Origin: an uncultured Lachnospiraceae bacterium
GTDB taxonomy: Bacteria > Bacillota > Clostridia > Lachnospirales > Lachnospiraceae
Length of the DNA stretch: 64,000 bases
Assembly (NCBI GenBank): GCA_910588815.1
Contig: CAJUQY010000001.1
Location: forward strand, 60,016-124,015
Direction of reading: 5' to 3'
The notes beneath the pieces are model-generated. The model was not told the DNA's origin. It saw only the letters and a program-made list of their open reading frames with translations, and searched no databases. This document shows positions 19,309-35,154 of this stretch, one piece after another. A program made the position numbers and the translations under genes. Positions within the stretch are counted from its first letter, which is position 1. Every line of letters starts with the position of its first letter.

Positions 19309-19331
19309 TACCATTAGTATATGTAATGGTA
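19309..19331. promoter_or_regulatory. Putative operator palindrome upstream of XRE copy 2
   Basis: TACCATTA-gtatatg-TAATGGTA, a perfect 8-bp inverted repeat, lies 25 nt upstream of the start codon. Confidence 0.45.
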
Positions 19332-19594: not shown

Positions 19595-20791
19595 ATGAAT
19601 ATTCTGATTTTTACCTGGAAGGATCTCGGGATTCCGGATGTGTGCGACGCGCTGGAAAAGCTTGGCTGTACATATCGCTGCGTTTCAAATGAGTATCTGC
19701 GGGAGCGGGTTAGCCCAGAGTTTGATAAGTTGTTTGAAGAAATATATGACGAAGGGTATTATGATGGGGTTTTTACCTTTAATTTCAGTCCGGTGCTGTC
19801 CAACAACTGCAATAAACGGAATGTCCCCTATATTGCCTTTGTCTACGACAGTCCATTGGTACAATTGTATTCCGTTTCTGTAATCAATCCCTGCAACCAC
19901 ATATTTCTTTTTGATAAAATACAGTATCAGGAATTTGCGCAGGCACAGATTCCGACGGTGCGCTATGCGCCGCTGGCCGTGGGGACGGAGCGGATTGCCA
20001 AACGGCTTGGGAATTTAGACGAGAGGGAAGAGAATGGAAAGACTGTCCGGGAAAATTACACCTGTGAGGTGTCTTTCCTCGGTTCCATGTACAATGGGAA
20101 ATCGGATTTTTTCAGCCGTCTGAAAAATCTGCCGCCCTACGCAGAGGGGTATCTGAATGCGGCGATGGCGGCACAAAAGCAGGTTCCCGGGCAATGGTTT
20201 ATCGAAGAGCTTCTGACTCCGGATATCATAAACGCGATGCAGAACAGTCTGGCGCCGGCCAGGCTGTTACCGAACCCGGACGGCGTGGAGACAGTCTCGT
20301 GGCTTTTTGCGAATATCTTTTTGGCGAGGAGGATTGCCGCCGCAGAGCGAAAGGAGCTCTTGGGGGCTGTATCGGAGCATTTTGAAACCTGGCTTTACAC
20401 ACCGTCTCCCACACCGGAGCTTCCCAGAGTGAGAAACCGGGGGCCGGTAGATTACTATCAATATATGCCCTTCGTATTTGCCTGCAGCCGGATCAATCTG
20501 AATATCACCCTTCGCAGCATTCAAAGTGCGATTCCTCTCAGGGCTATGGATATCCTGGGGGCAGGCGGCTTTTTGCTGTCAAACTATCAGGCGGAGTTCT
20601 ATGACCTTTTTGTGCCGGGGGAGGATATGGAGATTTTTTACTCTCAGGAGGAGCTGCTCCGGAAGTGTGAATACTATCTAAAGCATGACGCCCTGCGGCG
20701 GCAGATTGCAGCCAACGGTTATGGAAAGGTGAAGGAAAAGCATACCTTTGAGGTTCGGTTGAGGGAAATTTTTTCGGTGGTTTTTGGGTAA
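19595..20791 (+). CDS. CgeB-like glycosyltransferase (DUF3880 / Glyco_trans_1_2-type C-terminus)
   Basis: ATG at 19595 (SD acaggag). The C-terminal 'RINLNITLRSIQSAIPLRAMDILGAGGFLLSNYQAEFYDLFVPGEDMEIFYSQEELLRKCEYYL' fits the CgeB-type GT pattern. Confidence 0.6.
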   Translation: MNILIFTWKDLGIPDVCDALEKLGCTYRCVSNEYLRERVSPEFDKLFEEIYDEGYYDGVFTFNFSPVLSNNCNKRNVPYIAFVYDSPLVQLYSVSVINPCNHIFLFDKIQYQEFAQAQIPTVRYAPLAVGTERIAKRLGNLDEREENGKTVRENYTCEVSFLGSMYNGKSDFFSRLKNLPPYAEGYLNAAMAAQKQVPGQWFIEELLTPDIINAMQNSLAPARLLPNPDGVETVSWLFANIFLARRIAAAERKELLGAVSEHFETWLYTPSPTPELPRVRNRGPVDYYQYMPFVFACSRINLNITLRSIQSAIPLRAMDILGAGGFLLSNYQAEFYDLFVPGEDMEIFYSQEELLRKCEYYLKHDALRRQIAANGYGKVKEKHTFEVRLREIFSVVFG

Positions 20792-20795
20792 AGGA

Positions 20796-22262
20796 ATGAA
20801 GAAAAAGGAGAGCTTGATGGAAAGATTGAACGGCGGCGAGGTAAAGGAAGCGCTTCAGAGACAAATCGCAGAGGGGTATCTGTCCGGAAGACCGCGGTCA
20901 TCCTGCTGTCCTGGAATCTTCTGGAATATACGAAGCTGTGCATTAAGAGTATTCGGGAGACTGTGCCGGAAGACGTCAGGCAGATCATTGTGGTGGATAA
21001 TGCCTCTGAGGACGGAAGCGTTGAATGGCTGAGGGGGCAGAAGGATATTTTACTGATTGAAAATCAGGAGAACCGGGGCTTTCCGGCAGGCTGCAATCAG
21101 GGAATTGCCGCGGCCGATGCAGATGCCGATATATTTCTCCTGAACAACGACACGATACTGCCGGAGAATGCATTATTCTGGCTGCGGATGGGATTATATG
21201 AATCAGAGAAAAACGGTGCGGTGGGCAGTGTATCCAATTGTGTCGGCAATCATCAGCAGGCAGGGGGGATCAGGGGGGGACGGAGACCTGCCTGATTTGT
21301 TTGCCCATGCGGAGAAGACCAATGTGCCGATGAAGTATCCCTATGAAAAGAAGTTGTATCTGGTGGGATTTGCCCTTCTGATTAAACGGCCGGTTCTGGA
21401 ACAGGTGGGAATGCTGGACGAACGGTTTTCACCGGGGAACTTTGAGGACAATGATTATGGCCTGCGCGTTCTGGAGGCGGGTTTTTATAATATTTTGTGT
21501 AAAAACAGTTTTGTTATCCATTTCGGGAGCCGGTCCTTCGGCAAGAACACGGAGAGCTTCCAAGAGGCTATAGAGTCAAACATGGAGAGGCTGAATGAAA
21601 AATGGGGATTTCAGATTAAATATTACCTGCATCCGCGGGAGATTCTTGTAGAACAGATTGCTGAGCCTTTGGAAAAAGAAATCCGGCTTCTGGATGTGGG
21701 CTGCGGCTGCGGAGCCTTTATGGGGCATATGCAGGGAAAATACCCCCATGCTTCCGTATACGGCATCGAGCTTTTTTCGAAGGCTGCCGGATTTGCAGAG
21801 ACAATGGGCGAAGTGATTTGCGGGGACGTGGAGCATATGGAGTTCCCCTGGCCGGAAGGATTTTTTGATTATATGGTTTTCGGCGACGTTTTAGAACATC
21901 TGGACGATCCTCAGGCTGTGCTGACGCGCCTGGCCAGATGCTTAAAGACAGGAGGGCATATCATTGTCAGCATGCCGAATGTCAAGCATTATTCGGTGAT
22001 GCTCCCACTGCTTTTGGAGGATAAATTCACTTATGAAGACGCGGGGATTTTGGACAGAACCCACAGGAAGCTGTATACGGGAAGAGAGATTGCGGGGCTG
22101 CTTACAAGAAGCGGCTACCGTGTCGAGACATTGGCGGGGATTACCAGAGGAGAAACCGACGAACAGAGAAAGAAGCTGAGTGGACTTTTGTCAGGCTTGG
22201 GGCTGCCGGATATAGAGGCTTTTTTTATCTATCAGTATCTGGCGAAGGCTGTGAAGGAATAG
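20796..22262 (+). pseudogene. GT2 glycosyltransferase - class I SAM methyltransferase fusion, disrupted by two opposite-sign frameshifts
   Basis: The start ('MKKKESLMERLNGG...') and the C-terminal part ('LVGFALLIKRPV...DNDYGLR' plus MT motif I 'LLDVGCGCGAF') are in frame 0. The GT2 core 'RKTAVILLSWN...VVDNASEDGS...NRGFPAGCNQG...LLNNDT' is in frame 2. The second switch lies at the G6/G7 runs (21263-21279). Confidence 0.65.
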
Positions 22263-22298
22263 GAGAAAGGCCGCACGCCGTGCAAAAAGGAGAATTCT

Positions 22299-23482
22299 AT
22301 GGGGAATACACAAGAGGCTTTAGAACAGGGGCGCCTGCCGGATATCTATTTTTTTCCGGCTTTTCCTCTCACCAATGTGCAGCTTTTAAAAGACAGGGTT
22401 TTGATTCCTTATGCCTATTACCGTCATTTTGGCAGGAGCTTAACGCTGGTGACAAAGGCTGTTGACGATTATTCGTACCTGGAACGGCTGGAAGGGGCAA
22501 GGTTGGAGGCGCTCTCCTATCCGGAGGATGCGCCGGGGACATTCGATCACTATATCTGCGCTTACAGCGAGTATATCCGGGAACATTACCAGACCATGGA
22601 TATTTTGTTCCTGTTTCAGCCTATGTCCCATTATGTCCCTCTGGTGCAGCTTTATAAGGAATTGAGGCCAGATGGGAAAATTTACTTGAAGCTGGATGTG
22701 AATTCTGCATGGATGGATCGGTTTCCGCTTCCGCCAAAGGAACTGGGGCCTCTGCTCGACGCGTGTAATGTAATCAGCGCCGAGGGGAGAAGAATGCAGC
22801 GGCTCCTAAGCAAAAAATGTCCTTGGATCATAGATTATATCCCCAACGGATATTATACATTTGGAGAAGTAATGCCGAGAGCTTCTTTTGCTGAAAAGCA
22901 AAATGTCTTCTCACAGTGGGGAGAATCGGGAATGAAGAAAAGAATCATGAAATGCTTCTGCGGGGCTTCGCCATGGCGGCTAAAGAACTGCCGTCCTGGA
23001 GCCTCCGGCTTGTCGGCCCCATAGAGGATGGGTTCCGGCAATTCTGCGAATCCTTTTTGGAAGGATATCCGGAGTTGAAGGACAGAGTTTTTCTGGTCGG
23101 GCCGATTATGGATAAGATGCGTCTAAACGAGGAGTACAGGAAAGCGAAGGTTTTTGCCCTGACGTCCAATAAAGAAGGCGGCTCTCCAAATGTGTTTTCC
23201 GAGGCGGCCCTGCAGGGCTGCAATATGGTTGTCACGGATATTGACGCGTCAGGGGATATGACCGGCGAGGGAGCCTTTGGCATTACCGTACCCATAGGGG
23301 ATGTCCAGGGATTTGCGCGCGCAGTATCGGAATTGTGTGGAGATGAGGAGGGGATGGAGAAAAATTGCCTGGAGATACAAGAATATGTACGCCGCTTTTT
23401 TGATTATGACAGGATTGTAAGGCGGCTTCATGTGCTGCTCGGATATCAGGAACCAGCGGCGGGAGAGGAGGGGCGGCGATGA
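22299..23482 (+). pseudogene. GT4-family glycosyltransferase disrupted by a 1-nt frameshift near 22907-22913
   Basis: The N-terminal ORF ends out of frame after '...EKQNVF'. The continuation 'TVGRIGNEEKNHEMLLRGFA...LVGPI...EGGSPNVFSEAALQGCNMVVTD' (the EX7E-type GT4 motif) is in the -1 frame. Confidence 0.65.
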
Positions 23483-24513
23483 ATCTGCAATTGGAAATCA
23501 TAGAGGGAAAATTTTGCCTGATTGACATGGACAGTCAGGAGTACTGGCTCTTGTTTCCTGCTTCTCCTTACGACAATCTTTCCAAGTATCCGGTTTATAT
23601 AAAGAGCACGGCTACTCCGGTGTCGGTGCTGGAGATTTATGCGGATTTTTTCCGGAGTCTTCTGCAGGCGCCTTCTTCTCTCAATAAACTGCCGTATTTT
23701 TTGATTGGCGCCCATTTCATTCGGGAATTGATGACAAGGAACCAGGGGCTTTGTTTTATGGCGGCAGGCAGGAACATTGCCGGTATGGCTGATGCCTTAT
23801 CGAAACTGGTACATTCCTTTGACGTAAATTCTAATATTTTCTTAATTGAGACAGAGAGTGAGGTGGGGGCAAATCAGAGAGTGGCACGGATGCCGCTCAA
23901 AGAATATTTGCCTTTACTCCATGAAGGCTCCGTGTTCGGCATGATTTTAGATGCGGAGCTGCTCCGCCGTGAGGGAGAGGACTTTTTTGCCGATGTAATC
24001 TGGAGCATATCTGAGGGAGGCTCATTGGTGGTTTATGGAGATATGCAGGATGGATTTCTTAGAGAGCATCCGTTTCTTCAGGATTTTTCCGGCCAGGAGT
24101 TTGCCGGCTTCCTGATAGCTTTCGGAAGGGTGGATACAAGCCTTCGGGAAAGGGTCAGAGCATATACGGGCAGCGCGCGGAAAGAAGCAGAGCTTGCCGG
24201 TATTGCAAAGGAGTTTGAAAAACTGAAGCCACTGATGGAGCGTCTTCTGGTCCCGGAAGAAAATATGATATCTTATGCAAGGCCGGGAATCCGGAATCTG
24301 GTGGCCCTGGAAAAGAAAATTGCCGGGTATTATCCCAATCTTAAAGACCTGGATCTGAAATGGGATACAAACCGGCTGAAGGAGGCTCTGCTTCGTCTGC
24401 TTCTGGCGCTGGAGGATGCCCGGCCGGAGATGATTTTGAACGAAAGAGAGACATTGCACGAGATGTGGGAGGAGTATGAAAAGAAGCTTCTGTCGGAATT
24501 AGAAATGCGCTGA
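23479..24513 (+). CDS. Hypothetical protein, translationally coupled to the GT4 gene
   Basis: 344-aa ORF whose ATG overlaps the upstream stop (ATGA). 'FGMILDAELL...FFADVIWSISEGGSLVVYG' weakly recalls the methyltransferase-fold post-I/II region, but no SAM motif I is seen. Confidence 0.5.
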   Translation: MNLQLEIIEGKFCLIDMDSQEYWLLFPASPYDNLSKYPVYIKSTATPVSVLEIYADFFRSLLQAPSSLNKLPYFLIGAHFIRELMTRNQGLCFMAAGRNIAGMADALSKLVHSFDVNSNIFLIETESEVGANQRVARMPLKEYLPLLHEGSVFGMILDAELLRREGEDFFADVIWSISEGGSLVVYGDMQDGFLREHPFLQDFSGQEFAGFLIAFGRVDTSLRERVRAYTGSARKEAELAGIAKEFEKLKPLMERLLVPEENMISYARPGIRNLVALEKKIAGYYPNLKDLDLKWDTNRLKEALLRLLLALEDARPEMILNERETLHEMWEEYEKKLLSELEMR

Positions 24514-24543
24514 TGAAAAACATGCAAGGGGGGATAAAAAGCT

Positions 24544-25767
24544 ATGAGAATCGTTTTATTTTATTCAGAAACGGAATCCTTTAATTTTTTTACAGATCAA
24601 CTGGCAGAGGAGCTTCGGGTTCGGGGACATGAGGCCTTTATTTTGGATTATCTGAGGCCGCAGTCGGAAGGAGCTCATTCTTATAAAGAGTTTGCTGGTT
24701 TTGCCGCAAAAAAGATAGATGCGGTAATTTGCTTTGATGGGCTGGGAAGCAGGGAGGATATGCTCATTGAGCTGTGGGATGCCCATGAGGCTGTGGTGGT
24801 GAATATCCTGATGGATCATCCACTTCGCTTCCACCCCACTTTTGAAAAGCATCCCCGCCGCTATCTTTTGTTCTGCTGTGACAGGGACCACGTGACCTAT
24901 GTGAGGGAATATTTTGGAGATAAGGTTCCCTATGTGCTTTTTATGCCCCATGTCGGCGTGGCGCCGAAGGAAAACGGACAGATTGTTCCCTATAAAGAGC
25001 GAAGATATGAAATTCTATTTTCGGCTACTTATTATCAGCCGGAGTCCATGCTTTCCCAGGTGGGGAAACAGATGTCGCTGCGCTTCAGCGACGGTACGTC
25101 GATGGATGAATTTTATCGATTCGTGTATCAGAACCTGAAGGAAAATTCCGGATTTACAACAGAGCAGGCGGTTTTGTATACCATCAATCAGTTGGGATGG
25201 CAGCTTTCTATGGATGCTGTCAGGACTCTGATGAATGGTTCTGTTTACGTAGATTGGGCGATTCGCCAGTACCAGAGAGAGCAGGTGGTGAAGGTGTTGG
25301 CAGAATCAGGAATACCGTTTTATCTTCTGGGGAGGGGATGGGAAAATCATCCGTCCATCCATTGCAAAAATGTACACCGTCTGGATGACCGGGTTGCCTA
25401 TGCAAGGACCCTGCCTGTGATGGCGGATGCTAAGATTAATCTGAACGTGATGCCCTGGTTTAAGGATGGGAGCCATGACCGGATTCCCAATACGCTGCTG
25501 CAGCATTCGGTGCCTTTGACGGATACCAGCCGCTGGCTCGAGGATAATTTTGTCGACGGACAGGATATCGCTTTGTATGACTTGGACCATTTGGAGGAGC
25601 TCCCGGCGATTGTGGAGCGGCTGCTTACGGATCAGGAATTGGCAGAGGAAATTATCCGGAACGGTTATGAGAAAGTGCTTTTGAACCTGACCTGGGGACA
25701 CTGCGCAGAATGGGTTCTGGACGGGATTCAGGCGGTCAGGGCTAAAAAACTTAAGAAAAATACATAA
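24544..25767 (+). CDS. CgeB-like glycosyltransferase (second copy)
   Basis: 407-aa ORF. The C-terminal 'KINLNVMPWFKDGSHDRIPNTLLQHSVPLTDTSRWLEDNFVDGQDIALYDLDHLEELPAIVERLL' parallels the C-terminus of 19595-20791. Confidence 0.6.
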   Translation: MRIVLFYSETESFNFFTDQLAEELRVRGHEAFILDYLRPQSEGAHSYKEFAGFAAKKIDAVICFDGLGSREDMLIELWDAHEAVVVNILMDHPLRFHPTFEKHPRRYLLFCCDRDHVTYVREYFGDKVPYVLFMPHVGVAPKENGQIVPYKERRYEILFSATYYQPESMLSQVGKQMSLRFSDGTSMDEFYRFVYQNLKENSGFTTEQAVLYTINQLGWQLSMDAVRTLMNGSVYVDWAIRQYQREQVVKVLAESGIPFYLLGRGWENHPSIHCKNVHRLDDRVAYARTLPVMADAKINLNVMPWFKDGSHDRIPNTLLQHSVPLTDTSRWLEDNFVDGQDIALYDLDHLEELPAIVERLLTDQELAEEIIRNGYEKVLLNLTWGHCAEWVLDGIQAVRAKKLKKNT

Positions 25768-25770
25768 CTG

Positions 25771-25818
25771 CTTGTCATCAGTAATTGTATCTGGTAAAAT
25801 ACAATTACTGATGGCAAG
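25771..25818 (+). terminator. Long hairpin (19-bp stem) at the left edge of the lower-GC cassette
   Basis: The stem cttgtcatcagtaattgta / tacaattactgatggcaag has one G-U pair and a 10-nt loop. A T7 run follows 12 nt downstream. Confidence 0.6.
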
Positions 25819-25874
25819 TCGATAATTTTCGGTTTTTTTCTGCGAATGAATTAGAACGGAGGATAAAATGAAAG

Positions 25875-26414
25875 ATGTTCTCAAAAGTTGACAGGTGGAT
25901 TTTGACGAAGCTTTCTTTAAAAATAGAAAATACAGCGGGAACTAAGCATAAGCGTTCATATCTATCTGATTTGGTCTTTTTGATTGTTTATACGGCCATA
26001 TCTTTATATAATGCTTTGGCGTTGATGTTTTCTCAACTGATATTGACTGATGGGAAAGGTACTTCTCCTTCTCTTCTTGTGATCTGTTTGAATGTTATTG
26101 TTATCGTCAGATTAAATATTGACATATACATAAAAAAGAAAGAAAATGTGAATGCTACCTTAGATAGGTTGCCGGCTGTGAAGTTCGTCCAGGAGATTGA
26201 TATAAAAACATGGAGATACCGATTGGAAATTCTTTGCGTAGGATATGGTATCATTTTGATGGTTATCGTATACTATTTTTGCTATGGGGAGGTAGTTAGC
26301 GGCTCTTTGGCGATAGCTGGGATAGTTGCGGTTATCGAAACATTTATCAACAGTTTTCTGGATAATCTGGCCGCCAGATATGAAGCGGATCCAGAAGTTT
26401 TTATGAAAGAATAG
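25875..26414 (+). CDS. Hypothetical polytopic membrane protein (about 4 predicted TM helices)
   Basis: 179-aa ORF with SD ggagg. Hydrophobic stretches: 'LVFLIVYTAISLYNALALMF', 'LLVICLNVIVIV', 'ILCVGYGIILMVIVYYFCY' and 'LAIAGIVAVIETFI'. Low GC. Confidence 0.6.
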   Translation: MFSKVDRWILTKLSLKIENTAGTKHKRSYLSDLVFLIVYTAISLYNALALMFSQLILTDGKGTSPSLLVICLNVIVIVRLNIDIYIKKKENVNATLDRLPAVKFVQEIDIKTWRYRLEILCVGYGIILMVIVYYFCYGEVVSGSLAIAGIVAVIETFINSFLDNLAARYEADPEVFMKE

Positions 26415-26425
26415 GGGGGATAAAT

Positions 26426-26734
26426 ATGCGGGAGCAGACATTGATGTCGTTGGTGTTATTGTTTTTTTTGATACTGTTAGTGGCGAACGGGCTTGTATCA
26501 AAAAAACAGAAGAGGCTTTTGGATATCAGATTGCGGCAGCACAATGAAGGGATACTGTTTGCTGAGATGCCCTTTGATATTGGAGGAGAATGCTATCAAG
26601 CCCCTGTCTTTTTTAAAATGCATAATACAGGAAAAGAGTTATGTGAAGATATAGGAGAGATAGAGTATATTGCATACAGTGAAGTGTCTGAATATTGGAT
26701 GAAGAAGGAAAAGAAAAATGGATCAATTGATTGA
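26426..26734 (+). CDS. Hypothetical small protein with N-terminal membrane anchor
   Basis: 102-aa ORF with 'LMSLVLLFFLILLVANGLV' followed by a ~70-aa soluble part. It starts 11 nt after the previous gene. Confidence 0.5.
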   Translation: MREQTLMSLVLLFFLILLVANGLVSKKQKRLLDIRLRQHNEGILFAEMPFDIGGECYQAPVFFKMHNTGKELCEDIGEIEYIAYSEVSEYWMKKEKKNGSID

Positions 26735-27275
26735 CAAAATATGGGATATTGTAAAAATTGGTGCGGGAAATATATGTGCTAAAGACACAGATATCTGTTT
26801 TGGAGAATCCAAAAAAGAAACGTTTAAAAACTGGGTTGAAAGGCTCTATGATAATCTTCTGGAGTATATGGAAGATGCAGAAAAGCCATTGGATCGGCAT
26901 AAAATGGCGGCTATTTTTATAGTCGCAGTTATTAAAGCCGAGGTGCTGGAGGGGGAAAGAAGAGAAGCTGTTTTTGTGGGCAATTACATACTGGCAGCAG
27001 AAGTGGGCTTGTCTTATATGCGTAAGGTGCTTAATGAAAAACTGGAAGAAAAGCTGGGGGTGGAAACAAAAAACATAGAAAGGTTTTATTTCCCCAAAGC
27101 GAATTCTTGCCCAACCGATTATTTCAGGATTTTTTATCGAAATCTTTATTTTGCTGATACCAATGAGGAATGGGGGCTGAACCCGCTTGATATTGCGGAA
27201 CGATTGTTTTTACTGGAATATTTGACATTAGAACATAATGATATTGAACCATCTATCTTAAAAGAATATGAATGA
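26718..27275 (+). CDS. Hypothetical soluble helical protein
   Basis: 185-aa ORF overlapping the previous gene by 17 nt. I recognise no motif. Confidence 0.55.
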   Translation: MDQLIDKIWDIVKIGAGNICAKDTDICFGESKKETFKNWVERLYDNLLEYMEDAEKPLDRHKMAAIFIVAVIKAEVLEGERREAVFVGNYILAAEVGLSYMRKVLNEKLEEKLGVETKNIERFYFPKANSCPTDYFRIFYRNLYFADTNEEWGLNPLDIAERLFLLEYLTLEHNDIEPSILKEYE

Positions 27276-27388
27276 AAGCTTAAAGCCAAGGTTTTTGTGG
27301 AGAACAGATATGGCGAATAATTGTAGCTGTCAAAAGGGCAAGGCTTGGCGAGCGAAAGGAGGAATGATGGATGGAGGTGACGCAGGAA

Positions 27389-27535
27389 ATGACAGAAAAA
27401 GAAATGCATAGCGTAAAAATGTCCACACTTTATGAGTTGAGGTTGATCTTTACTCAAGGAGAAAAGAAGGAGTATACCACGGAAGAAATTGTGGAACTTC
27501 TGGATAAGATAGCAACAGCTAAAGATCAGAAATGA
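27389..27535 (+). CDS. Possible small ORF (48 aa) not in the supplied ORF track
   Basis: The ATG at 27389 is preceded by ggaggtg 9 nt upstream. The product is 'MTEKEMHSVKMSTLYELRLIFTQGEKKEYTTEEIVELLDKIATAKDQK'. It ends 25 nt before the 29-bp hairpin. Confidence 0.3.
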   Translation: MTEKEMHSVKMSTLYELRLIFTQGEKKEYTTEEIVELLDKIATAKDQK

Positions 27536-27560
27536 AAACTTTGCAGGGGAATGAAATATT

Positions 27561-27628
27561 GTGCGCATTTGTAAAAACGGCTCCTTTTCGATAAGAATTC
27601 GTATATAATAATTCTTATCGAAAAGGAG
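27561..27628. terminator. 29-bp perfect inverted repeat (bidirectional terminator-like) dividing the cassette
   Basis: gtaaaaacggctccttttcgataagaatt (27561-27589) and aattcttatcgaaaaggagccgtttttac (27600-27628) are exact reverse complements. The loop is 10 nt and A/T runs flank both sides. Confidence 0.7.
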
Positions 27629-27744
27629 CCGTTTTTACATTAGCAGCCAGGACAGATCGTTTGGCTAAATATTACTTGCCCTGAAATGAATTTTTTTGAA
27701 AATACCCCTTTTGTTTCAGGCAGATCTGTCGGACTGACGACAAT

Positions 27745-28269
27745 GTGACAACCCCATGGATAGATCGGCAATACAGAAACTTAATTGCTTATCAATGTAA
27801 AATATATACGCATGTGACCAAAAATTTAAGCCCGGCTGCTCAGGAAGTGGCGAAGATATGTGAAGAATTTTATGTTTTAAATTCTTATGATGAGCAAAGC
27901 TCGACCGATTCGGAAAATCAACTGCGCAATGAAGCAGTCAGGAATGAGCACAAGGAATGTTGTCGGAGGATCCTGATTCGTCTGGCGCAATTCCGCATGG
28001 AAATTGAAAATGTGAATACCATTCTGCGCCACCATCTGTACAGAGCTGAATATATGACACGGGCCCATGTTTCCGCATACTGGAGCGGCGTTCTTCAAAT
28101 GAATGACAGCGGGGCATTACCTTCCATGCCTTGGTTTGACGTCACGGATGCCGCGGGGGAACAGGAGTATGAAGGATATTTAAACAGCATAAGAAGGAAC
28201 TTTGCCGAAATTTTAGAAAACGAAGGGGGAGAGGCCGATGAAACTGGCGAACAACAAAAAGAAAAGTGA
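27745..28269 (+). CDS. Hypothetical acidic helical protein; start uncertain
   Basis: 174-aa ORF from a GTG with no SD. The GTG is embedded in ATGTGA at the end of a 20-codon upstream ORF (27686-27748). I recognise no motif. Confidence 0.45.
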   Translation: MTTPWIDRQYRNLIAYQCKIYTHVTKNLSPAAQEVAKICEEFYVLNSYDEQSSTDSENQLRNEAVRNEHKECCRRILIRLAQFRMEIENVNTILRHHLYRAEYMTRAHVSAYWSGVLQMNDSGALPSMPWFDVTDAAGEQEYEGYLNSIRRNFAEILENEGGEADETGEQQKEK

Positions 28270-28663
28270 CATGCCATATAAAATGGAACCGTTGGTTCCG
28301 ATACCCTCCTATGCACCGCATGATACACTGACTGCGAAGGGATACGAAATTCCTTCCGTGCTGATTAAATTTGAAGAAAATTTTGAATTACGATGCCGGG
28401 AAATCATTAAGAATGGGAAGCTGGATCAGTATAACAAGGGTTATATGGACGGGCTGATCTGCTGCATAGAGAAACAGGCATTAGCCGAATTGGAGGTACA
28501 GAGGGCAGCGCACAATCAGCGGATGGCCGATCTGAGCCGTCTTAGAGCCGGCGATCGCATAAAGGCAGAAGAAAAGTTAAGGCAAGTAGAAAAAGAAATT
28601 CAGACAGTAAAAGAGGAGCTTGAAAAAATAGAAGCTGTTTATGGAACCGTGAAGGGGGAATGA
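28238..28663 (+). CDS. Hypothetical coiled-coil protein
   Basis: 141-aa ORF with an alternative start at 28271 just after the upstream stop. The C-terminal 'RIKAEEKLRQVEKEIQTVKEELEKIEAVYG' is heptad-like. Confidence 0.5.
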   Translation: MKLANNKKKSDMPYKMEPLVPIPSYAPHDTLTAKGYEIPSVLIKFEENFELRCREIIKNGKLDQYNKGYMDGLICCIEKQALAELEVQRAAHNQRMADLSRLRAGDRIKAEEKLRQVEKEIQTVKEELEKIEAVYGTVKGE

Positions 28664-28666
28664 CAT

Positions 28667-29527
28667 ATGAGGAAAAAGGCGGTTATCGGTGTTTATGCCA
28701 TGAAACCAGAGACATATTCACTGTCAAAAGAAAACGAAGAAGAGCTGCAAAAAAAAGAAACTTCTCTTTGGCGGCGCCCTGCTATGCTGATAGTATGCAC
28801 TCTTGGAGCTACTGCACTGGACGGGACGGTCTTGTTTAACCTTTTGGACAAGGCGATGTTCCAGAGTGAACACATGGGATGGATTATGGGCTTGGGAATT
28901 GCTGTTATCCTGAATCTTGCGCCGCTTTTCGCTGCCTATTATATTTATCAGGCATTGTATAAGCTGAAACGGGGGGCGGCTTTGTGTGCGGGGCTTACTA
29001 TTTTGTCCTTTTTTATTCTGTTTGGCTCTACATGTGCCATTCGGGCGTCTTATGCGGATACTTATAACGCAGGTGGAGCCAAGCAGATGGATGAAGCGGA
29101 TATGGCGTATTTGGAAATTCAGATTGAAGAAAATCAGATTGAAGAAAAAACAGATCAAGGGAAAAAATGGACATTGACGCTCTTTCTGTCAGTGGAGCCC
29201 TTGGCAACTTCATTATTGAATTTTGTTATGGCTTATATCTCAGAGGATAAGTTCCAAAAAGAAAGAGAACATTTGCGCTTACGCCGTTTAGAATTAGAGG
29301 AGGCCAAAAGTGATCTGCTTGCCGTCGCCGCTTCTCTTGCTGAACCGGAGAGCTATACTCAGCAGCAATTGTCCATAGATGAGAGGCATTTGGAGGCCTG
29401 CCAAAAAGAAATTTATGAACGCTGCCGCTGTCTGGAAGCCAGAGCGAGACAATATTTAGCTGAATATTTGCAGGATCCGTCTGGGGCCAGTCGTGTTTTG
29501 GCGGAACTTGAGGTTCGGGATTCATAA
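28667..29527 (+). CDS. Hypothetical 4-TM membrane protein with acidic external loop and C-terminal coiled coil
   Basis: 286-aa ORF with SD aggggga. TM candidates: 'PAMLIVCTLGATALDGTVLFNLL', 'WIMGLGIAVILNLAPLFAAYYIY', 'ALCAGLTILSFFILFGSTCAI' and 'WTLTLFLSVEPLATSLLNFVMAYI' (with an embedded Glu-Pro). The tail is 'EREHLRLRRLELEEAKSDLL...'. Confidence 0.6.
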   Translation: MRKKAVIGVYAMKPETYSLSKENEEELQKKETSLWRRPAMLIVCTLGATALDGTVLFNLLDKAMFQSEHMGWIMGLGIAVILNLAPLFAAYYIYQALYKLKRGAALCAGLTILSFFILFGSTCAIRASYADTYNAGGAKQMDEADMAYLEIQIEENQIEEKTDQGKKWTLTLFLSVEPLATSLLNFVMAYISEDKFQKEREHLRLRRLELEEAKSDLLAVAASLAEPESYTQQQLSIDERHLEACQKEIYERCRCLEARARQYLAEYLQDPSGASRVLAELEVRDS

Positions 29528-29587
29528 GAAACTGATTAAATAGGTGGCTGGATAAGCGGAACGGGTGTATTGAAAGGAGAACCACTT

Positions 29588-30694
29588 ATGAAAAGAATAA
29601 AGAGTTTTTTCCTTGCGTTGACAATATTGATATCTGCTTTTTCTTTTACAGGATGCGGCAGTGAGGCCAGCAAACCACTTGCGCTGGCCGTGGTTGTGGG
29701 GGCACATTCCAATTTCAACCAGATCCCGAAAAACCTGAAACAGATTGATGAATTGTTTTATAAGGTGGCTGAGACTTATAGAAAATCCATTGCAGAAGAG
29801 TATGTAGAACAGATGGGCTATGTTTTGTTTAGTGAGAAAGGGCAGGCACAGAAAAGAGAAGTTGATACATTGAGAGCCATACGTCTGGCGGCGAATTCCA
29901 TACAGGATAAGGATAATTCCGAAAGACTCATTTTGGTCATAGACAGTGGCTTGTCAACGGTGGGAGAGCTGAATTTTGTGGAAGAGGGATTTCAAATTTC
30001 TGCAGAAAATATTGTCGCCGATTTGGAGAAGAAAAAGGCTATTCCGGATTTGAACGGATTATCTGTGGAATGGCTCTACTGTGCCGAGACGGCTTTGCCC
30101 CAACCGAGACTTTCCGAGTTGCAAAAGTTTGTATTGCAGGAAGTATGGGAGAAGATTTTGGAAGCCGGGGATGCCGAAAATGTGAAATTCCATTCCCAGC
30201 CGCCGTCGTCTTTCCCCCATGAGGGACTGCCGCCTGTGAGCATTGTAGAAAGAGAGGCTGATGAAGAGGAGGGAGGCCTCTACGAAAAGAAACATATTTT
30301 AGAAAACCGGATTTTTTTATTCAAGGGAGATCTCGCCGAGTTTGAGGAAGAACAGGATTCTTATGAGACCCTGGTTGTTTTGGCAGAGGAGCTTCAGTCC
30401 AATCCGGAAAGCCATGTCTATGTGATAGGCTGTACGGCCGGAAGTCCTCGAAAAGCTTTCTGTAAACAGTTGAGTGAGGATCGCATACATGCGGTTACAG
30501 ATGTGTTGAGTCAATTGGGAGTGTCTGAGTCTCAGATGCTTTCCTATGGCCTGTCCTCTGACAATCCGTGGTATGTGAATGATTTAGATCAAAACGGAAA
30601 GCAGATAGAGGAAACTGCCGCACCCAACCGCAGGGTCATGGTTATAGATGTGGACAGCGGGGAAGCTGAAAAGCTGCTAGGGTATTTGCCATAA
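29588..30694 (+). CDS. Lipoprotein with C-terminal OmpA-like peptidoglycan-binding domain
   Basis: ATG at 29588 (SD aaaggaga). Signal peptide plus lipobox 'MKRIKSFFLALTILISAFSFTGC'. The C-terminal 'VYVIGCTAGS...LSEDRIHAVTDVLSQLGV...APNRRVMVID' follows the OmpA_C pattern (LSxxRAxxV ... NRRV). The N-terminal alpha/beta part is unassigned. Confidence 0.7.
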   Translation: MKRIKSFFLALTILISAFSFTGCGSEASKPLALAVVVGAHSNFNQIPKNLKQIDELFYKVAETYRKSIAEEYVEQMGYVLFSEKGQAQKREVDTLRAIRLAANSIQDKDNSERLILVIDSGLSTVGELNFVEEGFQISAENIVADLEKKKAIPDLNGLSVEWLYCAETALPQPRLSELQKFVLQEVWEKILEAGDAENVKFHSQPPSSFPHEGLPPVSIVEREADEEEGGLYEKKHILENRIFLFKGDLAEFEEEQDSYETLVVLAEELQSNPESHVYVIGCTAGSPRKAFCKQLSEDRIHAVTDVLSQLGVSESQMLSYGLSSDNPWYVNDLDQNGKQIEETAAPNRRVMVIDVDSGEAEKLLGYLP

Positions 30695-30731
30695 ATCTCA
30701 AAATAATTTCAAAAAACTTTCAAAAGTCCCC

Positions 30732-30759
30732 TTATCCTTTCCGCCCCCCCTGCCGATAA
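30732..30759 (+). promoter_or_regulatory. Sigma-28 (SigD/FliA)-type flagellin promoter
   Basis: An exact GCCGATAA -10 lies at 30752-30759, 136 nt upstream of the flagellin ATG. The upstream element is only TTAT/TATC at the expected distance. The spacer contains a C7 run (30744-30750). Confidence 0.6.
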
Positions 30760-30843
30760 TATAAGTGTACAGCAAAAATGTACAAGAAAAATAATCAAAG
30801 CCAGGCCAACAGACCGATGCAGGGCCCGCGTCGGGGCTGTTGT

Positions 30844-30890
30844 CAGGGACAGGGAGGTCGCTGAGCGGCTGGCTAAAAACAAGGAGGTAA
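30844..30890 (+). promoter_or_regulatory. Flagellin 5' leader with candidate CsrA binding sites (GGA motifs, one overlapping the SD)
   Basis: caGGGAcaGGGAgg (GGA at 30847 and 30853) and acaAGGAGGt (GGA at 30883, which is the SD). csrA and fliW are present in the same locus. Confidence 0.4.
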
Positions 30891-30894
30891 ATGT

Positions 30895-31719
30895 ATGCAG
30901 ATTCAACATAATATTCAGGCTATCAACTCCAGCAGAAACTTAGGTATCAACAACAAAGCTCTGGCAAAGAACTTAGAGAAGCTGTCCTCCGGTTACAGAG
31001 TAAACCGTGCAGGCGATGACGCTGCCGGCCTTGCTATTTCCGAGCAGATGAGAAGCCAGATCAACGGTCTCAATCAGGCGGCTACCAACGCGCAGGATGC
31101 TATCGGTCTTATTCAGACGGCTGAAGGCGCTTTGACGGAAGTTCACTCCATGCTTCAGCGTATGGTTACCCTGTCTACTCAGGCTGCCAACGCTACGATG
31201 AACACCACTGCATTGGGAAATATCCAGACTGAGTATGATGCTCTGTTGGACGAAATTGACCGTATTACCAATTATACGGATTTTAATGGCACAAAGCCGC
31301 TGGGATCAGAGGCACCTGGCCAGATGACGTTCCAGATTGGTCCGTCTGGAGATGAAGTTATCAATGTTGCTGGTAAAGATTTGTCTACTGCCGGAGATGC
31401 TACTATGGTAGCAATCAGAGGTAACATTGATTCACGAGATGATGCCAATACCATGATTGACAACATTAATACGGCAATCAATACAGTTTCTACGTATCGT
31501 GCATCTCTCGGTGCTGCTCAGAACCGTCTGGAGCATACCTACAACAGCTTGAAGGTAACTTCCGAGAACATCCAGGATGCTGAGAGCCGTATCCGCGATA
31601 CCAATATGCCTGATGAGATTACGTCCTTCACGAAGAACAACATCCTTCTGCAGGCTTCTCAGTCTATGCTGTCTCAGGCCAACGCAGTACCTCAGAGCGT
31701 GCTGAGCATGCTGGGTTAA
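30895..31719 (+). CDS. fliC: Flagellin (short, 274 aa, D0/D1 only)
   Basis: 'MQIQHNIQAINSSRNLGINNKALAKNLEKLSSGYRVNRAGDDAAGLAISEQMRSQINGLNQA' and the C-terminal 'LGAAQNRLEHTYNSL...NILLQASQSMLSQANAVPQSVLSML' are canonical flagellin termini. Confidence 0.95.
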   Translation: MQIQHNIQAINSSRNLGINNKALAKNLEKLSSGYRVNRAGDDAAGLAISEQMRSQINGLNQAATNAQDAIGLIQTAEGALTEVHSMLQRMVTLSTQAANATMNTTALGNIQTEYDALLDEIDRITNYTDFNGTKPLGSEAPGQMTFQIGPSGDEVINVAGKDLSTAGDATMVAIRGNIDSRDDANTMIDNINTAINTVSTYRASLGAAQNRLEHTYNSLKVTSENIQDAESRIRDTNMPDEITSFTKNNILLQASQSMLSQANAVPQSVLSMLG

Positions 31720-31787
31720 TCCTCAGATTGAGGTCTTGTGATTTGTTGAAAGCGATGTAACGAAGTAACTGCATAGCATGAAAGAAG

Positions 31788-31827
31788 AGGCCATCCCGGG
31801 TTTCGGCTTTGGGGTGGCCCCTTTTTA
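31788..31827 (+). terminator. Rho-independent terminator after flagellin
   Basis: The stem ggccatccc / ggggtggcc has one G-U pair and is followed by cctttttat. Confidence 0.6.
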
Positions 31828-31983
31828 TCATGTGGAAAGTCCTTCGGATTTCCCATATGATAAAAAAGACCCTCCGGGGTTCGATCTGCGGCGGAGCGGA
31901 ACTACGTCGTTTGGGCGACGCGCCGCGGGTGAAGAATCCTGATTTGCGGGATTTCATTTGTTTTACAAGAAGGGGGACAGCTT

Positions 31984-33279
31984 ATGGGAAAGATAATAAC
32001 GCCGCGAATATCCCTGTGTATGATCGTGAAAAACGAAGAAAAGAAACTGGAACGGGCTTTGTCCTGGGGGGCGGGCGTTTTGTGGGAAAAAATCCTGGTG
32101 GATACCGGAAGCACGGACGGAACGGTTTCCCTGGCGGAAAAGCTGGGGACGAAGGTGTATCATTTTGACTGGATCGACAATTTTGCCGCCGCCAGAAATT
32201 TTGCCCTGGAGCAGGCGGGGGGGGACTGGATTCTGACATTGGATGCCGATGAATGGCCTGTCCCGGAAACGCCGGATAAGCTGGCCGCTATTGTCAGCCA
32301 GGCCGCGGATAGGAAGGTGGATGGGATATTTGGGGGAATCCTGGAATTGGATGGCAAAGGGCAGGTCGCCACATGTTCTTCCAGGATACGGATCTTCCGG
32401 AATACACCGGAGCTCCGTTACAGGCGGAGAGTCCACGAGCAGCTGGGATTTTCAGACGGCCGTCCCATGCAGTTGGCCGACGCGGAGAAAGAGCTGCTTT
32501 TTTTCCATGACGGCTATGTGGGGGAGGCTCTTGCCGGAAAACAGAGAAGCAAGCGCAATTTAAGGCTTTTGGAGCAGGAGCTTTCCGAGCATCCGGACGA
32601 TTATGAGGTGATGGGGTATCTTGGGGACGAGTACAGCAGCTACGGAGAGAAAGAGCAGGCTCTCTGCTGGTATCGCAAGTCTGTGGAACATATGCCGGAA
32701 GCGCTGCGGGAAGGGGATCCCAGGAGCGCCTGGACATTTTCTGCGCTGATTGCTTTATATGGGGAAAAAGGAGAAATTTCAGAGGCGGAAGGGATCTATC
32801 GGCTTGCGGTCGGGAAACAGCCGGAGGAGGCGGATTATGACTATCAGATGGGATGTCTCTGCGTGGCGGGACAGCGCTGGGAGGACGGGATCCGCTATTT
32901 GGCCGGAGGCCTTGCAAAGCTGGAACAGCACGGGTCCGCCAATTCCTGCATGCGGATCAAGGCGGCTTTGGAAGAGGTCTATGGAAATTTGGCCCTTTGT
33001 TTTTTGCGCAGCGGCAGGCGGGGGGAGGCGGTGGAAACCTCTGTGGCTCTTTTAAAGGCGAAGCCTTTTGAGATGAAAGCATTGTATATCCTGCTGTCGG
33101 CTTTTTATGAGGATGGGGGAGGGAAAGCAGATACCGAAGCTTACGTGGAGAGTGTCTCAGCTTTTCTGGGGAAGCTGTATCCGCTGCCTGACCTGAAAAG
33201 CCGTCTTTTCATCGCCAGAGCGGCGGAGAAAGCAGGTTGGGAGGCAATGAGAATCCGGATGGAGGCGCCCCCAAAATAA
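31984..33279 (+). CDS. GT2 glycosyltransferase with C-terminal TPR region (paralogue of 14881-15978; GmaR-like)
   Basis: 'ISLCMIVKNEEKKLERAL...LVDTGSTDGTVSLAEKLGTKVYHFDWIDNFAAARNFALEQAGGDWILTLDADE'. The C-terminal half is TPR-like. Confidence 0.75.
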   Translation: MGKIITPRISLCMIVKNEEKKLERALSWGAGVLWEKILVDTGSTDGTVSLAEKLGTKVYHFDWIDNFAAARNFALEQAGGDWILTLDADEWPVPETPDKLAAIVSQAADRKVDGIFGGILELDGKGQVATCSSRIRIFRNTPELRYRRRVHEQLGFSDGRPMQLADAEKELLFFHDGYVGEALAGKQRSKRNLRLLEQELSEHPDDYEVMGYLGDEYSSYGEKEQALCWYRKSVEHMPEALREGDPRSAWTFSALIALYGEKGEISEAEGIYRLAVGKQPEEADYDYQMGCLCVAGQRWEDGIRYLAGGLAKLEQHGSANSCMRIKAALEEVYGNLALCFLRSGRRGEAVETSVALLKAKPFEMKALYILLSAFYEDGGGKADTEAYVESVSAFLGKLYPLPDLKSRLFIARAAEKAGWEAMRIRMEAPPK

Positions 33280-33304
33280 AAGTCACAGAAGGGAGGGCTC
33301 TGAG

Positions 33305-34351
33305 ATGGAAGAAAAGAAATATGAAGAACTGGCGAAGGCGGTAACGGCATGCCTGAATGAGGTCGTCCGCCTCAGGCAGGAGAAGGAGAGCCTGCAAAAG
33401 CAGATGGAAGCTGCGCTTCAGACCCAGCAAAAGCTTTTGTCGGTGGTGTCCAATACGGAAAAAAATCTGGAAAATTTAAAGTATGAGTGGAATGACCCTG
33501 GACAGGACAGGGGAAGTTTTTATTATCCAAGGTTTTACAAAATTGAAGAGACGGTGGAGATGCTTGTTCAAGACAGGAAAAGCCTGGCTCGCTTTGGCGA
33601 TGGGGAATTTGCCATGATGTCAGGAAAAGAAAGATGCCGTTTTCAAAAAATGGAGGAGGAGCTGTCGGAGCGTTTGAGGGAGGTCATTGCCTGTGAGGAT
33701 GACGGTTTTTTGGTCGGAATTTCCAATCAGTACGGTTCTCTGGAAGCTTTCAACTGGGAGGGGAAATATGGGATTCGCCCTTATATGACGGATGCGGTCC
33801 GGCGGGAGCACCGGAGGTTTTTGAATTTGGATCGCATTTATCACGATGCCTTTATCAGCCGCCCTTATGCCATCTATGCAGACAACAGTACAGACGGCCC
33901 GGGGCAAAGGTTCCGGAACCTTAAGCGGATTTGGAATGGGAGAGATGTGATTTTTGCAGAGGGGGCATTAACCAGGATGGGGGTGGGCAACGACCTCTTT
34001 GACAATGCGGCCTCTGTCCGGCGGATCGTGGCGCCGCCGGTGGATGCCTGGGCCTGTTACCAGGAGATTTTAAGTGCGGCTCTTCGGTTTGCGGGAGAGG
34101 ATGTATTATTTTTGATTGCCCTGGGGCCTTCGGCGGGGGTATTGGCTTATGACCTTTTCCGCGCCGGATATCAGGCGCTCGACATCGGCCATCTGGATCT
34201 GGAATATGAGTGGTACTTAAGGGGGACCGGCGGCCGGTGTGTGGTGGAACATAAGTATAACAACGAGCTTGCCGGAGGAGATCAGGTCGCAGATATTCAG
34301 GACGAGGCTTATTTGAGCCAGATTGTGTATGTGGCTGGTTTAACATGTTGA
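33305..34351 (+). CDS. DUF1792-type (GT-D fold, SP_1767-like) glycosyltransferase with N-terminal coiled coil
   Basis: 'LARFGDGEFAMMSGKE' and 'FLIALGPSAGVLAYDLFRAGYQALDIGHLDLEYEW' match my memory of the DUF1792 family. Not searched. Confidence 0.55.
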   Translation: MEEKKYEELAKAVTACLNEVVRLRQEKESLQKQMEAALQTQQKLLSVVSNTEKNLENLKYEWNDPGQDRGSFYYPRFYKIEETVEMLVQDRKSLARFGDGEFAMMSGKERCRFQKMEEELSERLREVIACEDDGFLVGISNQYGSLEAFNWEGKYGIRPYMTDAVRREHRRFLNLDRIYHDAFISRPYAIYADNSTDGPGQRFRNLKRIWNGRDVIFAEGALTRMGVGNDLFDNAASVRRIVAPPVDAWACYQEILSAALRFAGEDVLFLIALGPSAGVLAYDLFRAGYQALDIGHLDLEYEWYLRGTGGRCVVEHKYNNELAGGDQVADIQDEAYLSQIVYVAGLTC

Positions 34352-34368
34352 AGGACAGCGTGTCGGTA

Positions 34369-35154
34369 TTACCGGATGTCCTTCCTTCGATACCAGAAAA
34401 ATGCCGCCGCAGTTCCGAGGAGGGCAAAAGCCATTCCCACCGCCAGGTACGGGCCGTTTATGGTTTTGCCGGTGATGATGTCGGCGCTTTCCGCGTAGCC
34501 GAAGGGAGTGACGTATTTTAGGAATTTGGCCTTTTGCGTCAGGTTGGCGATGATGTTGACAAAATAGAAGAGCGCCGCCATTCCCAGGCCGATGGATGTG
34601 CCGCCGTTCCGGATAAAGGCGGAGATGCCGAAGCAGACGGCGGCCGTCTCCAGCTGGAGCAGGAAATAGGCCAGAAACAGGAGGGAGAGGGTTCCTGGAT
34701 CCGGCTGTTCGCCGATGGCCGTGACGGACAGCAGGGTTACGGCGATGACGGCGAGATTGAGGATCACGATCTGGATGAAGAGGGCGGAAAGCTTCTGTAA
34801 AAGAATGCCGGAGCGGCTTACGGGATGGGTCAGCAGGAATTCTGCTGTCCCGTCCTTTTCTTCCTTTGCGAGGGCCTGGATGCCGAGGAGGGCAGCGAAA
34901 AAGGCTCCGCCGAGACCCAGGATGTTTCCGCACTCCACCCCGAAAAAGCCCAAAAATTCTCCGAAATTCAGTTTATCCATGCCAAAGGCGGCGGAGAATA
35001 CGCCCATATCGGAGAACATTCCGCTGACCGCGCTCATCTGGCTTCCTATTTCCGGATAGATGAGTATGCACAGGGCGGTCATAGAAGCAATGATCGCGGT
35101 CCAGATGCACAGGGAGATCCTTCCCTGGCGAAGCTCGTGTCTCAGCAATGTCAT
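34369..35154 (-). CDS. ABC-2 type transporter permease
   Basis: Start at 'MTLLRHELRQGRISLCIWTAII', immediately after the ATPase stop. It has 6 hydrophobic segments. Confidence 0.7.
   Translation of the reverse strand: MTLLRHELRQGRISLCIWTAIIASMTALCILIYPEIGSQMSAVSGMFSDMGVFSAAFGMDKLNFGEFLGFFGVECGNILGLGGAFFAALLGIQALAKEEKDGTAEFLLTHPVSRSGILLQKLSALFIQIVILNLAVIAVTLLSVTAIGEQPDPGTLSLLFLAYFLLQLETAAVCFGISAFIRNGGTSIGLGMAALFYFVNIIANLTQKAKFLKYVTPFGYAESADIITGKTINGPYLAVGMAFALLGTAAAFFWYRRKDIR

Follow-up and report, generated by a model that had tools for sequence, protein, structure and literature searches.

What is a 4.9-kb run of genes with a low guanine-plus-cytosine (GC) content doing between glycosyltransferase genes and the flagellin gene, and is it one system? 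The question is raised by a 64-kb window of DNA from an uncultured Lachnospiraceae bacterium (the window is the whole stretch of DNA analysed, to which all coordinates refer), in which eight plus-strand open reading frames (ORFs), A to H, lie between the stop codon of a gene for a 407-amino-acid (aa) glycosyltransferase (25767) and the flagellin gene (30895–31719). A first-pass annotation, made from the letters alone, had described this stretch as an orphan cassette of 8–9 genes and had put it forward as a candidate undescribed system, possibly one of envelope-associated defence or exclusion, or else a flagellum-associated accessory complex. We find that the stretch comprises two independent modules, each from a conserved and undescribed family. 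Module 1 (A-B-C) occupies 25861–27275 on the plus strand, from the ribosome-binding site of A to the stop codon of C, and module 2 (E-F-G-H, 27721–30694, plus strand) is a truncated copy of a four-gene operon. Our overall reading, to which we assign a probability of roughly 60%, is that the low-GC stretch is not one system and arose where two unrelated accessory modules, both acquired horizontally, piled up in a variable surface-structure locus, the host being an uncultured mouse-gut-type Lachnospiraceae species.

Results and Discussion

Two Modules in One Low-GC Stretch

The division is seen when the stretch is compared with related loci (identified below by L numbers). At eight distinct loci of the H family, colinear homologs were found of H in all eight, of F and G in seven and of E in six, and none of the compared loci holds a homolog of A, B, C or D. 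In L033, the most divergent H clade, the E match is unconvincing and G is apparently absent; at L061 and L062 gene sizes and order are as in E-F-G-H. Acetatifactor muris (L055), L035 and L058–L060 have colinear homologs of A, B and C, and at none of these loci was a homolog of E, F, G or H found. DNA similarity to A. muris (69%) covers exactly 25861–27273, that is, from 14 nt before the start codon of A to the stop codon of C. Base composition differs between the halves as well, A–D having 37.7% GC and E–H 44.9%, compared to 50.4% for the window as a whole. At the border of the two modules sits a palindrome (27570–27639, unstranded) with a perfect 30-bp stem, a folding free energy of −49.7 kcal/mol (z −13) and an A run and a T run at its flanks, which is bidirectional-terminator-like. 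Because A-B-C and E-F-G-H each travel as a unit and never occur together elsewhere, because their GC contents differ, and because this strong terminator-like palindrome lies between them, we treat them as two independent modules, and the single system of 8–9 genes is not borne out.

Several other elements of the first description hold, and with them the observation as a whole (eight same-strand ORFs, low GC, two hairpins, one OmpA profile match). Nowhere in the 64 kb is GC lower than here when averaged over 1.66, 2.95 or 4.95 kb, glycosyltransferase genes lie on either side of the stretch, and four products are membrane or lipid anchored, hydropathy giving four transmembrane segments for A, one for B, four for G and one signal/lipobox segment for H. 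Scans of all eight proteins with Pfam, PADLOC, PHROGs and NCBIfam returned the OmpA-like C-terminus of H as the sole family match, as had been anticipated; the Pfam scan detected no ATPase among them, and Rfam and tRNA scans of the window gave no match. That the genes are orphans did not stand: H has 96 homolog clusters, and C has 191 representative clusters in an exhaustive search (127 in a word-indexed one). The gene families are in no library searched and literature searches found no described system like E-F-G-H or A-B-C, in keeping with the proposal of an undescribed system. A foreign composition and an accessory, envelope-associated character are thus supported for the stretch.

The junction of the modules consists of D, the palindrome and a 5′ remnant of E. 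ORF D (27371–27535, plus strand, 54 aa) belongs to neither module: it lies outside the DNA segment common to the window and A. muris, no homolog was found beside other A-B-C or E-F-G-H copies, and gene callers at times put an antisense ORF in its place. Being unconserved, it is doubtful as a gene. The palindrome was also considered as a repeated mobile element, a possibility rejected on its single occurrence in the window.

Module 1: A Compact Membrane-Associated Gene Trio

A (25875–26414, plus strand, 179 aa) is a membrane protein with four transmembrane segments and with homologs in L055 (E 2.6e-67), L035 and L058. B (26426–26734, plus strand, 102 aa), which overlaps C by 17 nt, is bitopic, with an N-terminal transmembrane segment and a conserved C-terminal motif, FFKMxNxGKxxCE. 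C (26718–27275, plus strand, 185 aa) is an acidic, all-alpha cytoplasmic protein. Ratios of nonsynonymous to synonymous substitution rates (dN/dS) against A. muris are 0.135 for A and 0.072 for C, with dS saturated, and both genes are under purifying selection.

The same arrangement, a 200–270 aa (approximate sizes throughout) protein with 3–5 transmembrane segments followed by a 75–110 aa protein with one and then a C-like protein of 180–235 aa, recurs in L040, L042, L043, L045 (twice), L047 and L048. B and C are fused in P0102, P0105 and P0337, and an A-like transmembrane region is joined to C in L054/P0249. From these fusions and the recurring gene pattern we argue that A, B and C act together physically. 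The three would then form one membrane-associated complex, in which the C-terminal motif of B would tether C to the membrane, beside the four-transmembrane protein A.

In most of nine loci the GC content of module 1 is some 8–15 points under that of its flanks, and its surroundings differ from copy to copy. The A. muris copy is located within an exopolysaccharide locus. In L058, an element of 9.9 kb or more, which also carries a GmrSD-type gene and for which two different left flanks are known, has A-B-C at its left end; the L058-type element is flanked by flagellin and Tad pilus genes in one genome and by prophage holin and endolysin genes in another (L059). In L058/L060, A-B-C lies about 4 kb from flagellin and FliS genes. 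Another copy adjoins AbiEii and a PLD nuclease, and further copies, by reading of the ORFs, adjoin rpoB or rplJ/rplL. Module 1 is, as we read these loci, an intact and self-contained 1.4-kb unit that moves between Clostridia. As a side observation, the genes beside A-B-C in L035 (1576–6798) encode three proteins: one of 597 aa that is PPDK_N-like, one of 169 aa in which an HGHGH histidine-triad-like motif occurs, and one of 959 aa that is unassigned. These neighbours may be another uncharacterised system.

The Fold of C and the B Motif

The AlphaFold2 (AF2) model of C is of high confidence, with a mean predicted local distance difference test score (pLDDT) of 94.5 and a predicted TM-score (pTM) of 0.91. 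Residues L58, D59, R60, H61, K62, N106, P126, C131, R141, L143 and E167 are invariant. In a Foldseek search of the PDB with this model the five best matches are all chains of the P1 toxin Doc (probability 0.87–0.97, E 0.27–0.66), the only PDB fold matches with appreciable probability; the TM-score is 0.54–0.66 when normalised to the target (0.62–0.66 in four of the five) and 0.38–0.46 when normalised to the query. Doc and C are both small all-alpha cytoplasmic proteins carried by mobile elements. They differ in that C has no Pfam Fic match and that the HxFx[D/E/N][A/G]N[G/K]R motif of the Fic/Doc family is missing from the 57-sequence consensus, C having the invariant LDRHK, C131, R141 and E167 instead. 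We therefore take the modelled resemblance to Doc as a weak lead and not as family membership. A comparison of C with viral structures in BFVD yielded nothing meaningful, and PDB profile searches with C, E and G returned nothing or coiled-coil noise.

A second lead comes from L038, where the C-terminal end of a DUF4062 protein carries the B motif (FLKMKNSGKNPCD) and a gene for a C homolog comes after it. DUF4062 has been described as a TIR-like NADase effector of anti-phage systems, with a diversified auxiliary region in the defence proteins Swarozyc and Evangelion (bioRxiv 10.64898/2026.05.01.722283; 10.64898/2026.06.25.731849). L038 suggests that the pair of B motif and C can be the auxiliary part of a DUF4062 effector; the window differs in having no DUF4062, the B motif being there on a membrane anchor beside the four-transmembrane protein A. 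An NADase partner in place of a membrane partner, seen in this one example, is what one would expect if a sensor works with interchangeable effectors. C would thus be the sensor or regulator, coupled to a swappable effector, which in this stretch would be the membrane protein A, and we infer that A-B-C is a membrane-associated sensor/effector module of the abortive-infection or exclusion type. Upstream of the DUF4062-C pair of L038 (2684–3971) we also noted a nucleoside 2-deoxyribosyltransferase-like gene and a methyltransferase gene; a variant of the DUF4062 defence systems, in which C is the partner, may be encoded in L038.

Module 2: The E-F-G-H Operon

Two products of module 2 are cytoplasmic helical proteins, E (27745–28269, plus strand, 174 aa from a GTG start; family homology from 27721), usually 196–233 aa in its family, and F (28238–28663, plus strand, 141 aa; about 140–170 aa in the family). 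F is a coiled-coil protein with a charged helical stretch at residues 76–134 and has colinear homologs in L020, L023, L025–L028 and L031. G (28667–29527, plus strand, 286 aa) has four transmembrane segments, with an invariant Asp52 inside the first and further conserved residues in the third and fourth, and a C-terminal cytoplasmic coiled coil. H (29588–30694, plus strand) has 368 aa counted from an ATG with a good ribosome-binding site. All 96 homolog clusters of H have an OmpA domain and share at most 40% identity with it, apart from its own 99%-identical cluster. Its N-terminus, MKRIKSFFLALTILISAFSFTGC, contains a hydrophobic segment (residues 6–24) and the lipobox FTGC, in which, across 36 homologs, Cys23 never varies and Gly22 hardly ever does, and H is predicted to be a lipoprotein.

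The C-terminal domain of H matches PF00691 at 27.7 bits (gathering score 27.2; E 3.6e-6), and 36 of 36 family members match as well, with a best E of 2.9e-12. The AF2 model of H has an overall pLDDT of 86.5 and means of 87–98 per ten residues across this domain, and Foldseek matches it to Pal, OprF, OmpA and MotB with E down to 3.5e-8 and target-normalised TM-scores up to 0.88. The structure comparison that had been advised thus confirmed the OmpA fold of H, and for C it gave a confident model with a weak likeness to Doc. The C-terminal domain of H, a member of the OmpA/Pal/MotB family (PF00691), is on profile and model an OmpA-like peptidoglycan-binding domain. H differs from the familiar members of that family in an added alpha/beta N-terminal domain of about 200 aa and in being encoded in a fixed four-gene operon. 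We considered the N-terminal domain as vWA/TerY-like and rejected this, there being no Pfam match in the 36 members and no PDB sequence match; the Foldseek list for the H model is filled by OmpA domains. From topology, E-F-G-H would build a trans-envelope complex with E and F in the cytoplasm, G in the membrane and H outside it, bound to peptidoglycan.

Across E-F-G-H loci only E to H are common and the neighbours vary, and at every annotated locus these include conflict or mobility genes. At one locus there is a type I restriction-modification system, complete and with DUF4238 alongside; genes of the TerY-P type (Ser/Thr kinase, PP2C and vWA) lie beside E-F-G-H in L023, L028, L031 and L033; and an NB-ARC STAND protein, a relaxase, recombinases and an integrase are among the other neighbours. 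SUKH with Tox-GHH, or Endonuclea_NS_2, may follow directly after H and is then followed by a soluble TrwB/VirD4-like ATPase, with an M48 peptidase often added to the series, and L023 carries arrays of SUKH genes. Flagellar linkage was seen at none of ten other E-F-G-H loci, so that the flagellum-associated complex of the first-pass annotation is not supported. A scan of GTDB genomes with a narrower H alignment returned only two loci. As for A-B-C, the contexts in which the family is found are mobile or defence-rich.

Some of these neighbourhoods deserve description in their own right. A block that recurs 3′ of H in L020 (11245–14628), L062 (11236–14604) and L023 (11316–15491) holds genes for a small nuclease toxin (with a SUKH immunity gene in L020 and L062), a VirD4/TrwB-like ATPase of about 430 aa, which weakly matches PADLOC mad8, and an unassigned protein of 378–390 aa; in L023 it also includes an M48 peptidase. 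Toxin and ATPase are missing from L025, where the protein of about 380 aa and the peptidase are present. In L020 (7155–7760), E-F-G-H is immediately preceded by genes for a zinc-ribbon protein (53 aa) and a JAB-like one (about 145 aa). Two genes some 6 kb upstream in L033 (1836–2452) match this pair by size only, and a JAB-ThiF (E1-like) fusion is encoded one gene after H in L061 (12075–13805). These JAB/ThiF neighbours hint at a link to ubiquitin-like conjugation. On the gut metagenome contig L025 a Cas13a gene (15767–19822) lies about 4.5 kb downstream of E-F-G-H.

The known system that comes closest in general layout is Zorya, in which an inner-membrane complex of ZorA and ZorB is anchored to peptidoglycan and signals to effectors through a long cytoplasmic tail, and in which wall binding, the ion-pathway residue and the cytoplasmic tail are all needed for defence (PMC11890865). 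The cytoplasmic coiled coil and the membrane-embedded Asp52 of G and the OmpA-like wall-binding domain of H parallel these features, and E-F-G-H, too, is found in defence islands with variable effectors. There is, however, no homology: the Pfam MotA_ExbB and PADLOC ZorA/ZorB models gave no match to the stretch proteins. ZorB combines a single transmembrane Asp helix and an OmpA-like domain in one protein, whereas in E-F-G-H the wall-binding domain resides on the lipoprotein H and the conserved Asp in the first transmembrane segment of G; E and F are two extra cytoplasmic proteins; PADLOC found no ZorC, ZorD or ZorE in the stretch; and the host is Gram-positive. We therefore rejected E-F-G-H as a Zorya system on all three counts, namely the ZorA channel, the ZorB architecture and the zorC/zorD/zorE genes. 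The L020 homologs gave sub-threshold matches to the ZorA coiled coil (ZorA1; E 0.0017, on the E homolog) and to the OmpA part of ZorB (E 0.0075). We infer that E-F-G-H spans the envelope and, fixed to the wall, acts as a sensor or an anchor for cytoplasmic effectors that vary, with a logic like that of ZorAB and no homology to it. A second comparison is with the TerY-P triad of vWA, PP2C phosphatase and Ser/Thr kinase, which serves as a stand-alone or accessory anti-phage module (PMC11090510). Genes of this type recur beside E-F-G-H elsewhere, as listed above; the window differs in having no gene of the triad, and E to H have no kinase, phosphatase or recognisable vWA domain.

Erosion of Module 2 in the Window

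The copy of E-F-G-H in the window shows several defects. Family homology of E starts at 27721, just after an in-frame stop codon and 24 nt upstream of the sole possible start (GTG, 27745), and E homologs have some 37–45 more N-terminal residues. No Shine–Dalgarno sequence is visible before this GTG and no sigma-70-like promoter match was found between the palindrome and E. The first gene of module 2 is 5′-truncated, and E has lost its promoter, its start codon and its first 37–45 or so codons. H lacks a segment of about 35–45 residues that holds four nearly invariant family positions. A poly-C tract in its interdomain linker (30208–30218, plus strand) is C5 in the window and C7 in a sister lineage, where the resulting +1 frameshift splits H into 211 and 152 aa; the split is the same in four assemblies from different samples (L012, L015, L016, L019) and could reflect either a pseudogene that has become fixed or slipped-strand switching. 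The genes that usually accompany E-F-G-H are all missing from the window. Judged from the sequence, module 2 in this genome is a decaying remnant, and the 5′-truncated and eroded copy may be non-functional here.

Same-Species Contigs and the Boundaries of the Stretch

The whole stretch is present in every same-species contig retrieved, at 98.4–100% identity, and the 16 kb compared at 19001–35000 are identical to a contig (L011) of the metagenome-assembled genome GCA_948621615.1. Two lineages are seen, between which the genes of the stretch are almost invariant, with A-B-C intact in both; the substitutions are too few for within-species dN/dS values to be informative. No empty site was seen, no scan of relatives having been aimed at one. 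Outside the modules, the two lineages differ strongly in the flagellin gene (30895–31719), which is hypervariable: 32 codon differences are synonymous and 37 nonsynonymous, and there are five indels. In the glycosylation genes, a gene for a GT2-methyltransferase (588 aa when intact) is split in the window's lineage by a G6-to-G7 change in a poly-G tract at 21273, which could be phase variation, and a GT1 gene (394 aa when intact) by a 1-nt deletion at 22907; both are intact in the sister lineage (L012). The annotation of L011 further gives an AAA-ATPase_like/PDDEXK_9 protein upstream of the glycosylation genes (window 16125–17807) and two HTH_3/HTH_31 regulator genes at about 17.9–19.2 kb of the window.

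At the left of the stretch lies hairpin 1 (25770–25819, plus strand), a terminator-like structure directly 3′ of the glycosyltransferase stop codon with a 21-bp stem and a folding free energy of −31.3 kcal/mol (z −8.2). This hairpin and the palindrome far exceed shuffled sequence in stability and are real, as had been noted; their stems, previously given as 19 and 29 bp, measure 21 and 30 bp. Within hairpin 1 (25772–25800), about 75 nt upstream of A, is also the region's best sigma-70-like match, TTGTCA-17-TAAAAT with extended TG, so that the terminator-like stem and a possible promoter of A-B-C overlap. The right-hand boundary, outside the modules and upstream of the flagellin gene, is marked by a sigma-28-type −10-like element, GCCGATAA (30752–30759, plus strand). 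Of the sigma-28-type flagellin promoter that had been placed at 30752, this −10-like motif is indeed seen; a clear −35 element is not, and the motif is not rare, with 11 occurrences in the window versus 4.5 expected.

Weighing the Explanations

Shared strand, tight packing, low GC throughout, four membrane or lipid-anchored products and the presence of the entire stretch in all same-species contigs would suit the idea of a single new system of envelope-associated defence or exclusion made up of all eight ORFs. This is largely refuted, and we hold it to be very improbable, since the halves co-occur at no other locus, are split by the hairpin with the 30-bp stem and differ in GC, the A. muris similarity stops at the end of C, D is unconserved and E is 5′-truncated. 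What survives of the proposed envelope-associated defence or exclusion is its tenor, by association, the relatives of both modules being found in mobile elements and defence or conflict islands. The location of the stretch between flagellin-glycosylation glycosyltransferase genes and the flagellin gene invites another explanation, in which the genes are flagellar or surface-glycosylation accessories, with H a MotB-like wall anchor and A-B-C a regulator or immunity function of glycan loci. The OmpA/MotB-type domain of H, the closest A-B-C copy in the A. muris exopolysaccharide locus and the copy 4 kb from flagellin and FliS genes fit this view. Against it stand the absence of flagellar linkage at the ten other E-F-G-H loci, the mobile element of L058, which sits beside prophage lysis genes in L059, the A-B-C copies beside rpoB, rplJ/L, AbiEii and similar genes, and the lipoprotein nature of H, which has no MotB transmembrane Asp helix. 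Variable glycan loci are, moreover, common landing sites for foreign DNA. We consider accessories of this kind unlikely; the flagellin/glycosylation island is probably a landing site and not a functional partner.

That E-F-G-H might instead be the membrane part of an apparatus for toxin export or interbacterial antagonism, working with the VirD4-like ATPase and nuclease toxins and present in the window as an orphan remnant, is suggested by the genes that follow H (SUKH with Tox-GHH, or Endonuclea_NS_2, then the TrwB/TraG-type ATPase) and by the SUKH arrays of L023, Tox-GHH/SUKH pairs being classic polymorphic toxin-immunity pairs (PMC3482391). Yet toxin and ATPase genes are missing from L025–L028, L031 and L033, in L026 no block intervenes between H and the next membrane-protein gene, the toxins have no recognisable trafficking domains, and no VirB4-type ATPase or other secretion hallmark is on record at any E-F-G-H locus, the TrwB/VirD4-like proteins being all there is of this kind; kinase/phosphatase/vWA, restriction and Cas13a neighbours suit immunity better. 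An export role thus seems rather improbable, if somewhat less so than a flagellar or glycan one. The opposite extreme, non-functional debris of pseudogenes and chance ORFs left by old insertions, draws on the truncation of E, which has neither ribosome-binding site nor promoter match, on the internal deletion of H and its frameshift in the sister lineage, on the unconserved D and on the missing partner genes. It has poor odds as an account of the whole stretch, in view of the clear purifying selection on A and C against A. muris, the very confident model of C, an A-B-C that is intact and nearly invariant across two lineages, and the open frames and good ribosome-binding sites of F, G and H.

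The pile-up of two acquired modules thus remains our preferred reading, and a conflict or defence function of the modules is probable from their contexts. A number of points weigh against this. The conflict interpretation draws on the neighbourhoods of about ten E-F-G-H and about eight informative A-B-C loci without a background control. Neither module fits any model of PADLOC-DB v2.0, in which the stretch proteins had no significant match (best E 0.006–0.035, over short stretches). Searches of phage and plasmid collections by tblastn with C and with G, and scans of IMG/VR with alignments of C and of H, gave no match. The two closest copies of A-B-C, in the window and in A. muris, are both in surface-glycan loci, which could mean a glycan-related role. 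The Foldseek E values of C against Doc are weak (about 0.3) and hhalign, with an approximate Doc sequence, gave an insignificant probability of 0.05, and the fusion of the B motif to DUF4062 is a single example. As to the decay of module 2, the open frames of F, G and H and their good ribosome-binding sites mean that it may still partly function.

Conclusions

We regard both as candidate conflict modules that are new but of a generally familiar kind; at this locus one is degenerate. A more specific proposal, which we advance tentatively and regard as possible but doubtful, is that A-B-C and E-F-G-H each define an anti-phage conflict system of Clostridia not described before. A-B-C would then be an abortive-infection module of minimal size that acts at the membrane, with a Doc-like C and a B motif that could also drive a DUF4062 NADase, and E-F-G-H a Gram-positive, lipoprotein-based, wall-anchored sensor that feeds TerY-P-like sets, VirD4-like ATPases and nucleases. 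If this is true, there are two mobile conflict modules in gut Lachnospiraceae that have so far gone unrecognised and that escape present annotation and defence-finding tools entirely. With E-F-G-H, the anchoring of immune sensors in the wall would no longer appear limited to Gram-negative bacteria or to Zorya. What A-B-C would add is a small system of three genes that is linked to DUF4062 NADase effectors and includes a new all-alpha protein for which the model is confident. At the locus itself the meaning is more modest: foreign cassettes would use the flagellin/glycosylation island as a landing pad, and of those two found here one is already decaying.

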